In this document: one piece after another, positions 21,588 to 29,086 of the stretch | Layout of the letters: every line of letters begins with the position of its first letter | Numbering within the stretch: the first letter of the stretch is position 1 | Origin: a virus | Strand: one strand, 5' to 3' | IMG/VR virus record: IMGVR_UViG_3300036851_000097 | Span: 1 to 39,291 of that record | Length of the DNA: 39,291 nt | Position numbers and translations under genes: made by a program | The notes under the pieces: generated by a model | Told to the model about the DNA's origin: nothing | Seen by the model: the letters and a program-made list of their open reading frames with translations, nothing else | Database searches by the model: none

Positions 21588-23030
21588 ATGAAGATCACCA
21601 CCCTTACCCCGGCGCAAGAAGAGCGCATGAGCGAATACCGCGAGAAATGGTTGGCTATTGGACTCTCTACGGCTCCTACCGATAAGGTGGGGGCAGAGAA
21701 AGCTATGGCCGAAATTTACCGAGCAGCAGGCAAAAAGCCGCCCAAAATGTATTGGTCGGCGTCCCCTTATGTGATGATGATTGTTAGCTCTATTATGACC
21801 AATAAGGCTTTTTTGGAGAACGTAAATGCCGTCCTCAAAGCTAATGGCTTTGATCAGGTCGGGGATCAGGTCTGGGGTCAGGTCTGGGATCAGGTCAGGG
21901 ATCAGGTCGGGGATCAGGTCAGGGATCAGGTCTGGGGTCAGGTCGGGGATCAGGTCAGGGATCAGGTCTGGGGTCAGGTCGGGGATCAGGTCAGGGATCA
22001 GGTCGGGGATCAGGTCAGGGATCAGGTCTGGGGTCAGGTCGGGGATCAGGTCAGGGATCAGGTCAGGGATCAGGTCAGGGATCAGGTCAGGGATCAGGTC
22101 AGGGATCAGGTCAGGGATCAGGTCAGGGATCAGGTCAGGGATCAGGTCGGGGATCAGGTCAGGGGTCAGGTCAGGGATCAGGTCGGGGGTCAGGTCTGGG
22201 GTCAGGTCTGGGATCAGGTCAGGGATCAGGTCAGGGATCAGGTCTGGGGTCAGGTCGGGGATCAGGTCGGGGGTCAGGTCGGGGATCAGGTCGGGGATCA
22301 GGTCTGGGGTCAGGTCGGGGATCAGGTCAGGGATCAGGTCAGGGATCAGGTCGGGGATCAGGTCGGGGGTCAGGTCGGGGATCAGGTCAGGGAAAACATC
22401 TGGAAATCCGGCTTTGGCCAACACGAAGCAGGGTTTTTCTCATACATCGAATATTTTCGAGAGATATGCGGACTTACCGTTGAGTCCGAGAAACTTGTTC
22501 CTCTCATGGAACACGCGAAATGTGCTGGATGGTATCAGCCGTATGAAAATGTTTGCTGGATGTCAGAACGCCCAACGGTTTTGGAGTTAGACGATATGGG
22601 GCAACTACATTGCGAAAATGGCCCTGCGGTAGCCTACTCCGACACCTACGAGATTTATGCCATTCACGGCGTAAGGATTCCGTCGTGGATTATCAACAAC
22701 TCGGAACGCATAAACGCCCGATCCATCGAGGAAGAATCGAACATCGAGATTCGCCGCATCATGATCGAGCGTATGGGCCATGGTGCCTATATGCAGGAGA
22801 CGGGTGCTGAGGTTGTTGACGTTGATTACGTCTCGATTGGCGGCGGTTTAGAAGGGTCTATCATGCGGGCACTTCTCAAGGACAAAAACGGCCTTCAATA
22901 TCTGTGCGCTCACGATGGAAGCACGGATAGGGTCTACTATATGTCGGTTGACCCGAACGTAAAGACATGCTCGGATGCTCACGAATCGGTTTCAGGGTTC
23001 AAGGATTCTCTTTGCGTGGCCCAAGCATGA
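21588..23030 (+). CDS. Repeat-containing protein: N-domain + 45 x (D/G)QV(R/G/W) tetrapeptides + conserved C-terminal domain
   Basis: 480 aa. The C-terminal part (GFGQHEAGFFSYIEYF...RPTVLELDDMGQLHCENGPAVAYSD...IHGVRIPSW) resembles an uncharacterised bacterial/phage family that, as I recall, carries short V-x-D-x-type repeats. Not verified. Confidence 0.8.
   Translation: MKITTLTPAQEERMSEYREKWLAIGLSTAPTDKVGAEKAMAEIYRAAGKKPPKMYWSASPYVMMIVSSIMTNKAFLENVNAVLKANGFDQVGDQVWGQVWDQVRDQVGDQVRDQVWGQVGDQVRDQVWGQVGDQVRDQVGDQVRDQVWGQVGDQVRDQVRDQVRDQVRDQVRDQVRDQVRDQVRDQVGDQVRGQVRDQVGGQVWGQVWDQVRDQVRDQVWGQVGDQVGGQVGDQVGDQVWGQVGDQVRDQVRDQVGDQVGGQVGDQVRENIWKSGFGQHEAGFFSYIEYFREICGLTVESEKLVPLMEHAKCAGWYQPYENVCWMSERPTVLELDDMGQLHCENGPAVAYSDTYEIYAIHGVRIPSWIINNSERINARSIEEESNIEIRRIMIERMGHGAYMQETGAEVVDVDYVSIGGGLEGSIMRALLKDKNGLQYLCAHDGSTDRVYYMSVDPNVKTCSDAHESVSGFKDSLCVAQA
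21852..22391 (+). repeat. 45 tandem copies of the 12-bp unit G[A/G]TCAGGTC[G/T/A]GG
   Basis: 540 bp and in frame. Only unit positions 2 and 10 vary. A degenerate 46th unit (gaaaacatctgg) follows. Confidence 0.98.
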
Positions 23031-27182: not shown

Positions 27183-28088
27183 TTGTCGCGGTTGGCGTTG
27201 CGTCACATCCTCAACAGGGGTGGGTTCGGATTATTTGTGGAGGATTCTTTGCGTGAGCTACACCTTTTTGCAGGAGCAGGGGGGGGTATCCTCGGTGGAA
27301 TCCTTCTCGGACATACCCCCGTCTGTGCTGTCGAGATTGAACCTTACCCAAGAAAAGTCTTACTCCAAAGACAGCGAGACGGGATATTTCCAAAGTTCCC
27401 AATTTGGGATGACATCAGAACCTTTGACGGAAACCCATGGCGAGGGCTCGTCGATGTTGTTTGCGGAGGGTTCCCATGCCAGGATATTAGCGCAGCAGGA
27501 AAGGGCGCGGGAATCACGGGAGAAAGATCAGGACTTTGGGCCGAGATGGCGCGGATCATTCGCGAGATTCAACCCCAATTCGCATTTGTGGAAAACTCCC
27601 CAATACTCACTTCTCGGGGGCTTGGCGTCGTTCTCGGAGACTTGGCCAGAATGGGGTATGATGCAAGATGGGGAGTGCTTTCATGCGCCGATGTTGGCGG
27701 TGTTCACTTACGAAAACGAATCTGGATTAAAGCTGCCAACGCCGAGAAGTTGTACAGCTATGGGGGCAAGAATAACCGAAAACACGGCTCAACAGAAATT
27801 TCCAAACCTAGAGACGATTTTAGCGCGTCTCGTTCTTCCCACCATTGGGAAGAACGAGAACAAGGGAAGTTCCAAAAAAAGATATATCGGTTCAAAAGAT
27901 TTCCGTGGGGCGAAGATGTCCGAGGGATTGAGGATTTGCGAGGCCGATCCGATTTACCTGAACCCCTTATTCGCCGAATTGGTCATGATGTGGCCTTTGG
28001 GATGGACAGACTTGCAGTCATTGGAAACGGACAAGTTCCAAGAGTGGTTAAACTTGCATGGGAAACCCTCTCAGAAGGGCTTATCTAA
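27183..28088 (+). CDS. DNA (cytosine-5) methyltransferase, main frame (motifs I, IV, VI, VIII, X)
   Basis: LHLFAGAGGG (I), GGFPCQDIS (IV), FAFVENSP (VI), HLRKRIWI (VIII), IGNGQVPRV (X). There is no ATG start: the candidates are TTG 27183 or GTG 27237. No recognisable motif IX in this frame. Confidence 0.85.
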   Translation: MSRLALRHILNRGGFGLFVEDSLRELHLFAGAGGGILGGILLGHTPVCAVEIEPYPRKVLLQRQRDGIFPKFPIWDDIRTFDGNPWRGLVDVVCGGFPCQDISAAGKGAGITGERSGLWAEMARIIREIQPQFAFVENSPILTSRGLGVVLGDLARMGYDARWGVLSCADVGGVHLRKRIWIKAANAEKLYSYGGKNNRKHGSTEISKPRDDFSASRSSHHWEEREQGKFQKKIYRFKRFPWGEDVRGIEDLRGRSDLPEPLIRRIGHDVAFGMDRLAVIGNGQVPRVVKLAWETLSEGLI

Positions 28089-28095
28089 TGGCTAG
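27220..28095 (+). CDS. Overprinted +1-frame ORF inside the C5-MTase gene (TRD/motif IX-like content)
   Basis: Open for 291 codons. It contains KLPTPRS, LPTIGKNENKG and LNPLFAELVMMWPLGWTDL. In-frame ATGs lie at 27409 and 27916 (the latter gives a 59-aa peptide). Expression is unproven. Confidence 0.4.
   Translation: MGSDYLWRILCVSYTFLQEQGGVSSVESFSDIPPSVLSRLNLTQEKSYSKDSETGYFQSSQFGMTSEPLTETHGEGSSMLFAEGSHARILAQQERARESREKDQDFGPRWRGSFARFNPNSHLWKTPQYSLLGGLASFSETWPEWGMMQDGECFHAPMLAVFTYENESGLKLPTPRSCTAMGARITENTAQQKFPNLETILARLVLPTIGKNENKGSSKKRYIGSKDFRGAKMSEGLRICEADPIYLNPLFAELVMMWPLGWTDLQSLETDKFQEWLNLHGKPSQKGLSNG
27279..27286 (+). repeat. G8 homopolymer in C5-MTase motif I
   Basis: gca gga gca ggg ggg ggt. 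Loss of one G would move frame 0 into the open +1 frame. Confidence 0.95.
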
Positions 28096-29086
28096 GATTC
28101 GAAACATCAAGCCCGAGTTTTTCCGTCACGAAGAATTACAGTCGTTCGGTGCATTACCAATGCTGGTATTTACTGGATTATGGTGCCAAGCTGATCGGGA
28201 AGGGCGCTTTAACTGGAAACCAAAAACTCTGAAACTGGACATCTTGCCATTTATTGAATTCAATATGGGAGAAGTTTTAGACCAACTTCTGTCTATTGAT
28301 CTAATCCGTAAATATTCAGTCTCAGGGGCAGATTATGGCCTAATAAAAAATTGGTCTAGGCATCAATTACCGGGAAGGGATGAACCACCTAGCGAAATAC
28401 CTGCCTTAGATGGGGTGTTAACGGACTATGATAGACCCCCTAACGCCACAATTAGAGCCAAAATTTATGAGCGTGATGGTTATTCATGCTCTTATTGTAA
28501 AATAGACCTTAGAAACAGTATCCGGTCACGCTGCATAGATCATGTTATTCCCTATGCAAAGGGTGGGAAAAACACGGAAAAAAATCTTGTAACTTCATGC
28601 AAACAATGCAATTACAAAAAGGGAAACAAAACTCCTTTGGAAGCAAAAATGCCTTGGCCAGATGGTTTTGGAGAACAGTATGTTAACGGGGTGTTAACGG
28701 TTACATTAACAGACCTTCAACCAAACCGTGACAAGGAAAGGGAAAAGGGAATTGAAAATGGAGTTAGGATAAAGGATAAGGCCGAAATCGGACCATGGTT
28801 TTCAGACCCTCTCTTTTCCGAGGCTTGGAGCGAGTGGACAAAGGCTCGGAAGTCTAAGCCGCCAGAGGCTGCGTACCGGAAGCTGGTGCGAATATCTGGC
28901 TCAGACCTTACCCTCGCGATTAAAATCCTCAATGAATCTGCCGAAAATGGCTGGACGGGGATTTTTCCCCTGAAAGGACAAAATGGAACCCATTTCAAAT
29001 CTCGTGGGCAAAAGCTCGATGATGCAGCCGAATCCCTCCTTAGAGACCTCGGAGGAACGCCGGAAGGCGGTAGAAGTCCAGCTTAG
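28088..29086 (+). CDS. Replication-organiser-like protein with embedded HNH nuclease domain
   Basis: 332 aa from ATG 28088 (TAATG overlap). N-terminal ARIRNIKPEFFRHEEL...GLWCQADREGRF. HNH motif is CSYC...CIDHVIPYAKGGKNTEKNLVTSCKQCNYKKGN. C-terminal FSEAWSEWTKARKSK. Confidence 0.7.
   Translation: MARIRNIKPEFFRHEELQSFGALPMLVFTGLWCQADREGRFNWKPKTLKLDILPFIEFNMGEVLDQLLSIDLIRKYSVSGADYGLIKNWSRHQLPGRDEPPSEIPALDGVLTDYDRPPNATIRAKIYERDGYSCSYCKIDLRNSIRSRCIDHVIPYAKGGKNTEKNLVTSCKQCNYKKGNKTPLEAKMPWPDGFGEQYVNGVLTVTLTDLQPNRDKEREKGIENGVRIKDKAEIGPWFSDPLFSEAWSEWTKARKSKPPEAAYRKLVRISGSDLTLAIKILNESAENGWTGIFPLKGQNGTHFKSRGQKLDDAAESLLRDLGGTPEGGRSPA

Follow-up and report, generated by a model that had tools for sequence, protein, structure and literature searches.

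Can one viral gene encode the two parts of a DNA methyltransferase in two reading frames of the same strand? The question is raised by IMG/VR virus record IMGVR_UViG_3300036851_000097 (39,291 nucleotides; this whole stretch is called the window here), in which a DNA (cytosine-5) methyltransferase gene holds a second open frame. Mechanical translation of the plus strand, on which all parts of this gene lie, gives two open reading frames (ORFs), 27183-28088 (301 amino acids, frame 0) and 27220-28095 (291 amino acids, frame +1), with a shared stretch of 869 nt. An initial annotation had described the pair in exactly these terms, and all the peptide motifs that it cited are found in the translations. 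The frame 0 product is referred to as A, the +1 product as B, and homologous loci by L-numbers. The comparisons set out here make it highly probable that both frames of this locus are coding throughout and specify the two subunits of one DNA (cytosine-5) methyltransferase.

Both frames are held open by selection

Protein A was the sole query with which 80 IMG/VR loci were fetched, so that this sample is free of bias toward an open B frame. A scan of bacterial assemblies, also with protein A, yielded 18 prophage loci, and about 140 loci were covered in all, from isolate phage genomes, IMG/VR contigs and bacterial assemblies. A non-redundant set of 65 homologues was used for the consensus, the stop counts and the survey of starts. 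Alignment of homologues had been proposed in the initial annotation as a check on the +1 frame, and the frame withstood it: B is without an internal stop in 80/80 IMG/VR loci, in which the third frame averages 14 stops per gene. The B-frame stops of these loci are confined to two sites, a TGA or TAA directly before the B start and the 3' end of B. In most loci this end comes a few codons ahead of the A stop; in L091 the match runs on for about 80 nt beyond it. Over the roughly 140 loci as a whole, no scattering of stops through the B frame was seen.

The number of stops to be expected was obtained from synonymous-codon shuffles of A over the body of the gene. Among the 65 non-redundant genes, 16 stops were counted in the +1 frame against 299 expected, and the +2 frame showed no depletion (882 observed, 810 expected). 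For the window alone, 0.12% of 5000 shuffles leave the +1 frame stop-free, the mean being 4.6 stops, and the +2 frame has 14 stops against 13 expected. In the reciprocal test, the B protein was held fixed and its synonymous codons were shuffled across the linker between motifs VIII and X of A in 58 genes; no A-frame stop was observed in this unconserved linker, against 151 expected. The shuffles in both directions therefore indicate that each frame stays open exactly where its own protein is least conserved. The dual-frame observation is confirmed as real and above chance.

The B frame is open in all 18 prophage loci except L140, the most distant of them, and the hosts include Acinetobacter, Verrucomicrobia, Planctomycetes, Spirochaetes, KSB1 and Nitrosomonadaceae. 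A full-length +1 ORF is also present in the annotated methyltransferase genes of two distant isolate phages. E. coli has a homologue in just 4 of 5426 genomes. A locus in a lambdoid prophage of E. coli PCP07014 (L141, 1054-1834) has stops in both frames within 4 nt (1417-1423) and is marked by PGAP as a pseudogene with an internal stop; both frames reopen immediately afterwards.

B starts 4 nt past the start of A (NTGAATGAG), and the 5' consensus of the homologues is NTG-A-ATG-AGC. The NTG of A is ATG in 27 homologues, GTG in 13 and TTG in 7. At +4, the B start is ATG in 51/65 genes and GTG in 4/65, the remaining genes having a B-frame ATG a few nucleotides upstream. The codon of Asn-2 in A is AAT in 50/50 cases and never AAC, a choice that creates the ATG of B. 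A Shine-Dalgarno-like core is found in 26 of the 44 homologues with the NTGANTG layout; its distance to the A start is 3-6 nt (8 nt in one case), and to the B start 7-10 nt. With GGAGGA-ttc-TTG-C-GTG at 27240-27255 of the window, and with the alignment of homologues as a guide, the A start was set at TTG 27249 and the B start at GTG 27253. The Shine-Dalgarno-like GGAGGA (27240-27245) is common to both, with a gap of 3 nt to the first and 7 nt to the second. With these starts, A has 279 amino acids (27249-28088; TAA stop at 28086-28088, the ORF extending back to TTG 27183) and B has 280 (27253-28095; TAG stop at 28093-28095). Another possibility considered was translational coupling to a gene that lies upstream and ends at the TGA of A-TGA-ATG; an upstream B-frame ORF of at least 60 amino acids ends there in 9/49 loci, and such coupling is therefore not a general mechanism.

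Selection was estimated by an OLGenie-style count on 14 independent close pairs, with bootstrap over pairs (ranges in brackets), for three segments of the gene. Over codons 1-95, ωA is 0.11 and ωB 0.85 (0.65-1.09); over codons 96-165, the values are 0.24 and 0.33 (0.26-0.40); and over the remainder of the gene, 0.52 and 0.24 (0.15-0.37). Along the same segments, the rate at sites that are synonymous in A and nonsynonymous in B falls from 0.41 to 0.23 and then 0.19, and the rate at sites that are nonsynonymous in A and synonymous in B rises from 0.05 to 0.17 and then 0.41. From the 5' to the 3' end, constraint shifts from A to B.

The four-fold synonymous sites of A are second codon positions of B, and a pairwise identity of 0.26 is expected there at saturation. 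Some of these sites are near 0.26, and values of 0.9-1.0 are reached at FSDIP, W113, P132, G135, motif IX, W265 and H269 of B. At the sites coding the D and P of FSDIP, conservation is 0.91-0.95 where 0.26 is expected; at those coding W113, P132 and G135 it is 100% where 26% is expected; and W265 and H269 are fixed via four-fold sites in GTG (1.0) and GCA (0.97) codons of A. Synonymous sites of frame 0 had been predicted to be constrained, and they are so where conserved +1 residues are encoded. In a simulation with A fixed, the identity of B is in excess in all three regions, by a statistic that is inflated by the relatedness of the sequences. The features that mark an overprinted pair, namely depletion of stops, a conserved start and purifying selection beyond the first frame, are all found here. 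Selection keeps both frames open, purifying selection acts on A and on B in parts of the gene that complement one another, and the two starts are conserved.

Motifs and domains of the two products

A matches the Pfam family PF00145 (3e-30) over motifs I-VIII, with amino acids 26-211 of the 301-residue ORF aligned to profile positions 4-190 of 324. It also matches phrog_363 (2e-64) and, under the curated cut-off, TIGR00675 (2e-21), and the comparison with M.HhaI matched residues 15-168. Motif I (27258-27287), motif IV with the catalytic PCQ (27465-27491), motif VI with ENSP (27579-27602) and motif VIII with RKRIWI (27705-27728) are strongly conserved in the consensus of the 65 homologues. A linker (27729-28004) separates motif VIII from the motif X region DRLAVIGNGQVPRVVKLAWETL (28005-28070), which includes IGNGQVPRV and has the consensus rvDRlkAiGNGQVP.VaalAw.iL. 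All the motifs that had been claimed for frame 0 (I, IV, VI, VIII and X) were located, I-VIII being backed by PF00145. The consensus of A is strong through motif VIII, blank over the linker and conserved again at motif X. The linker had been described as basic, of low complexity and without motif IX, and it is so; its sequence is unconserved, with no consensus in the homologues, and its frame is open. The likeness of the A motif X is seen in L128, a homologous segment of which was aligned with motif X of gp65, the single-chain enzyme of Mycobacterium phage Phasih. As in other C5-methyltransferases, the catalytic motifs lie in one chain and motif X is C-terminal, but the recognition domain and motif IX are not on that chain.

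B gave no match in Pfam or NCBIfam, and its profile found in the PDB a chance match alone (E 0.49). It matches phrog_1008 (4e-17), and two small PHROGs were matched at its C-terminus. As a query, B matched 370 database proteins, and its profile matched 24,163 clusters (50% identity, E<=1e-3), 5,106 of them at E<=1e-30. The separate profile searches that had been suggested for the two frames thus give a match for A in PF00145, and for B not in Pfam, yet in phrog_1008. Nothing can be read from the silence of Pfam on B, since motifs IX and X of the single-chain Phasih enzyme go unrecognised there as well. An A/B/A composite assembled by hand gains no score in Pfam over A by itself.

The second product is divided here into five parts. 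The leader (amino acids 1-95, 27253-27537), with a conserved FSDIP (27304-27318), is open, nearly neutral and predicted to be disordered. The core (amino acids 96-159, including HLWKTPQYSLLGGLASFSETWPEWGMMQDGECF; 27538-27729) overlies A motifs VI-VIII and is delimited by ωB, by the four-fold sites and by predicted hairpins. A putative target-recognition region with xPTP modules follows (27730-27957), comprising KLPTPRS (27730-27750) and LPTIGKNENKGSS...FRGAKMSEGLR (27835-27933). The candidate motif IX, LNPLFAELVMMWPLGWTDL (27958-28014), coincides with A four-fold sites that are 0.8-1.0 conserved, and the C-terminal tail, QSLETDKFQEWLNLHG... (28015-28092), overlies A motif X and has the nearly invariant W265 and H269. 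The consensus of B consists of G.lPTP and lnP.w.EwlMgWPigWTdL.PLe.dKFq.Wl..Hg, and these conserved blocks span the start of the blank linker of A, then the pre-X and X region. In the AlphaFold2 model of full-length B, the mean predicted local distance difference test score (pLDDT) is 57 and falls below 50 for amino acids 30-89, a stretch predicted to be disordered; amino acids 96-159 form beta hairpins in which the mean of a 10-residue block reaches up to 84. A model of the core built from 145 sequences has a mean pLDDT of 69, with block means of 74-92 from the recognition region through motif IX.

Regarding the identity of these parts, the recognition modules, of the form h-x-PTP-x-A-x-D/G, number from 1 to about 6 among the homologues, and G.lPTP is conserved in B where A is unconserved. 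Single-chain enzymes of actinophages hold LLPTPxAxD modules in frame, between motifs VIII and IX. The profile of B was aligned by hhalign with motif IX of Phasih gp65, LHPAFPEWMMGWPAGWVT (probability 88%, E 2.7e-6). The proposal that the +1 frame supplies the recognition elements and the motif IX missing in frame 0 is borne out by this alignment, by the xPTP modules found in frame in the single-chain enzymes, and by ωB values of 0.24-0.33. As judged from their motifs, A and B jointly hold the full set of the single-chain relatives.

Natural variants and the weighing of explanations

Several lineages depart from the layout of the window. In L128, from a metagenome-assembled genome of Spirochaetia (1001-2174), A ends right after motif VIII (170 amino acids), and B (389 amino acids) holds leader, core, four xPTP modules, motif IX and motif X in one frame; this B was aligned with IX-X of Phasih (E 2e-7). 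In L039 (1361-2735), motif X is also in B behind IX, with an insertion of about 100 amino acids between the two, and A ends after the linker. L126 and L130 have three to four recognition modules in B, and their A linker is lengthened in step and still open. The B leader is shorter or missing in L031 (B open over 147 codons), phage S72 (B of 199 amino acids) and phage Lily (B of 163 amino acids), the last two with internal B starts. The B ORF of Paenibacillus phage Lily (L122, 904-1395, KP296792) is entered in GenBank as a hypothetical protein and annotated 'g62 internal gene', and no discussion of it was found in the P. larvae phage genomics papers searched. In L013 (1497-2792), an insertion breaks the motif IV region of A (GGFPCTEICVANN...) and a C-terminal extension of about 180 amino acids follows motif X; B (254 amino acids) is intact.

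At the other end of this range, Phasih gp65 (L120) and Orf45 of Propionibacterium phage PFR1 (L143) have all motifs in one frame. Both retain a +1 ORF of 116-161 amino acids right after motif VIII (L120 1495-1980 and L143 989-1339) with SETWP..G.M..G...SSL(L)xTPxxS. Frame A of the two genes is little alike where this ORF lies, and about 30 mycobacteriophage records match. The actinophage +1 ORF may be a relic of a re-fused dual-coding ancestor, or it may specify a second product. When motif frames were sorted by regular expressions, about half of the loci remained unclassified; the classified ones comprise 74 with the window layout, 1 single-chain and 1 of the L128 type. The layouts thus vary in which chain bears motif X and in whether B has a 5' or an internal start, and nothing short of two chains assembling in trans would account for every one of them.

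The mechanism we propose would operate as follows. From one messenger RNA and one ribosome-binding site, the GGAGGA, translation would begin at two starts 4 nt apart. Frame A would yield the large catalytic domain, in which an expendable linker joins motifs I-VIII to motif X. Frame B would yield a disordered, mostly unconstrained leader followed by a beta-rich core, the xPTP modules and motif IX, which together would form the small DNA-recognition domain. A and B would then assemble in trans into an active enzyme, like the alpha and beta chains of M.EcoHK31I and M.AquI and the artificially split C5-methyltransferases. We infer the translation of B from the common ribosome-binding site, the assembly of A with B, and the methyltransferase activity.

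This mechanism corresponds to the extended overprinted beta subunit, the one survivor of the three that the initial annotation had offered, the conserved unit being the full-length +1 ORF with its own start. Phase switching at the G8 tract within A motif I (GGG GGG GGT, 27279-27286), another of the three, was set aside; the tract, which has no part in the mechanism, is not conserved, the longest G run being G5 in 39/65 homologues and at least G8 in 3/65. The third was a programmed frameshift, which, like transcriptional slippage, would join A (I-VIII) to B (recognition, IX) and lead back to A for motif X, giving one chain. The window does have att-aaa-g right after motif VIII, and in L128 and L039 a single +1 shift after VIII would suffice for a canonical chain of I-VIII, recognition region, IX and X. 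However, att-aaa-g is specific to the window, the nucleotides that follow motif VIII differ from one of the 65 homologues to another with no slippery site in common, and the majority layout requires a +1 and then a -1 shift within 290 nt. A frameshift would also leave unexplained the stop-free first 160 or so codons of B with their conserved start, the stop-free and unconserved linker of A, and the B variants that start internally; we regard it as very unlikely. The same low standing is given to a short C-terminal B peptide, with the rest of the +1 frame untranslated. M.EcoHK31I, with its 61-amino-acid beta, provides the precedent, an in-frame ATG at 27916, upstream of motif IX, would give 59 amino acids, ωB of the leader is near 1, and B is N-terminally shorter in some lineages. 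Even so, the +1 frame upstream of 27916 is stop-free in the homologues where 4-5 stops per gene are expected, and the core (ωB 0.33) and xPTP modules that lie there are under purifying selection. The conservation of the 5' B start (AAT in 50/50) also argues against it, and even the shortest natural B proteins (147-199 amino acids) contain the core and recognition region. The 59-residue peptide put forward earlier is therefore unneeded, as the conserved unit is the full-length +1 ORF starting 4 nt after A.

B might instead be a real overprinted protein unrelated to the methyltransferase, with an anti-defence or regulatory role, A acting alone with relaxed or no sequence specificity. Such a reading would suit the lack of a Pfam, NCBIfam or PDB match for B, the novel accessory roles that overprinted viral proteins often have, and the basic linker of A, which might bind DNA non-specifically. 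It is difficult to reconcile with the motif IX and xPTP modules of B lying in frame in the single-chain relatives and with an A that has no conserved sequence between VIII and X. In addition, A is incomplete without B in L128 and L039, where B has motif X; we hold this explanation to be unlikely. Finally, two compensating sequencing or assembly indels could mimic the pattern in one sequence, and at a GC content of about 50% moderately long shadow ORFs do occur, so that the open +1 frame might be an artefact or a by-product of composition. The occurrence of the same layout in about 140 independent loci of three kinds (isolate phages, IMG/VR contigs and bacterial assemblies) and the shuffles of the window and of the family, with the +2 frame undepleted, leave this explanation with next to no probability.

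Several points weigh against the two-subunit dual-coding gene preferred here. For every member of the family, the two-subunit enzyme is a prediction from sequence. The leader of B is under almost no amino-acid constraint, and what points to its translation is that it avoids stops and that its start is conserved. For the recognition region of B, homology is supported by short motifs and one 24-residue profile match. The confidence of AlphaFold2 for B alone is just moderate (57 at full length and 69 for the core), and a Foldseek search of the PDB with the model of the B core returned nothing at E<=0.001; B is therefore without a structure-based link to a known small domain. In addition, the TTG and GTG starts of the window are weaker than the ATG/ATG of most homologues.

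Known systems, annotation and significance

In M.EcoHK31I, a beta chain of 61 amino acids with motif IX is encoded in another frame inside alpha, which holds motifs I-VIII, X and the recognition domain; in M.AquI, alpha carries I-VIII and beta IX-X, the split lying in the variable region and both chains being required; and artificially split C5-methyltransferases complement when cut in the variable region (PMC2836561, PMC3404938). M.EcoHK31I had been cited as a precedent for the window, fairly, as its second chain lies in an alternative frame of the first gene and has motif IX. The two systems share two polypeptides from overlapping frames of one gene, with I-VIII and X on the large chain and IX on the other. 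By its published description, M.EcoHK31I differs in that beta has motif IX only and the recognition domain is on alpha, whereas in the window B is as long as A (280 against 279 amino acids), starts 4 nt after it behind the same Shine-Dalgarno sequence, and bears the recognition modules and a conserved core, A being without a conserved recognition domain. L128 and L039 share exactly the I-VIII/IX-X partition of M.AquI. The window itself, unlike M.AquI, keeps motif X on the catalytic chain, and its B overprints the entire A gene, whereas the summary in PMC3404938 describes no co-extensive gene overlap. The window would work like M.EcoHK31I and M.AquI but departs from the defining layout of each.

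Phasih gp65 and PFR1 Orf45 have the same set as the window pair, namely I-VIII, LLPTPxAxD, IX (xxPxFxEWMMGxPxGW) and X (GNGxVPQQ); unlike the window, they have one frame for all of it, the +1 frame keeping a short B-like ORF (SETWP...SSLPTP) after VIII. The Rz/Rz1 spanins of phage lambda resemble the window in that one gene lies nested within another, in its +1 frame, and the products form one complex; Rz1 differs in covering part of Rz and having its own internal start, and the spanins are unrelated to methyltransferases. An insertion in a phage methylase that hides an HNH endonuclease in an alternate frame has also been described (PMC11855218). It shares with the window alternate-frame coding in a phage methylase gene, but it is a mobile homing-nuclease insertion, not a methylase subunit, and does not span the whole gene. 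No description of family-wide dual coding was found in the full-text literature, by a limited search that does not prove the finding unpublished. The family appears to be a novel form of split C5-methyltransferase, and a very widespread one: its second chain runs the whole length of the first, holds the recognition modules and would share the ribosome-binding site of the first.

Around the gene, a scan for promoters and terminators gave nothing useful. The downstream gene (28086-29086, 332 amino acids) combines a replication-initiation-like N-terminal part with an HNH nuclease domain. It begins with an ATG at 28088 that overlaps the A stop (TAATG) and falls within the last codons of B; the overlap suggests that this gene is translationally coupled to frame A. 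Elsewhere in the window, a 12-nt tandem repeat, GATCAGGTCAGG (21852-22393, 45 copies, 91% matches), lies within an ORF of 480 amino acids (21588-23030) and encodes (D/G)QV(R/W/G) units. As the repeat period is a multiple of three, a same-strand ORF of 254 amino acids and an antisense ORF of 336 amino acids are also opened; both were considered as overlapping genes and rejected as repeat artefacts.

On the source contig (Logan SRR11829677, 38.7 kb), the gene in public annotation is that of the B protein (P0001, 280 amino acids from 27253, 100% identical to B), and A was dropped. The near relatives of B listed have no Pfam domain and are named 'hypothetical protein' at most, and phrog_1008, which matches B and not A, is labelled 'DNA methyltransferase'. 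Gene callers keep one frame: in thousands of contigs it is B that they choose over the methyltransferase frame, and elsewhere they choose A. Pipelines record the family as one gene, and the B-frame proteins consequently make up thousands of database clusters. A missing half in the other frame would explain the many short phage 'Dcm' genes that seem to have no recognition domain. A codon-optimised synthetic A would destroy B and should be inactive, which is relevant to methylome engineering and to work on phages and host range.

The family is a deeply sampled natural system for two proteins on about 800 nt, in which the modules of one expand while the linker of the other stays open. With two starts 4 nt apart behind one Shine-Dalgarno sequence, dual out-of-frame initiation is directly testable. 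We see about an even chance that one ribosome-binding site routinely launches two proteins 4 nt apart and so fixes the subunit ratio, that the near-neutral, disordered B leader of about 95 codons is there only because translation crosses it, and that the layout is ancient, occurs in many phyla and may be ancestral to some single-chain phage Dcm enzymes. If this reading is true, few same-strand gene overlaps among the viruses of prokaryotes would be as long or as widespread as this one, which standard annotation and synthetic recoding would miss.

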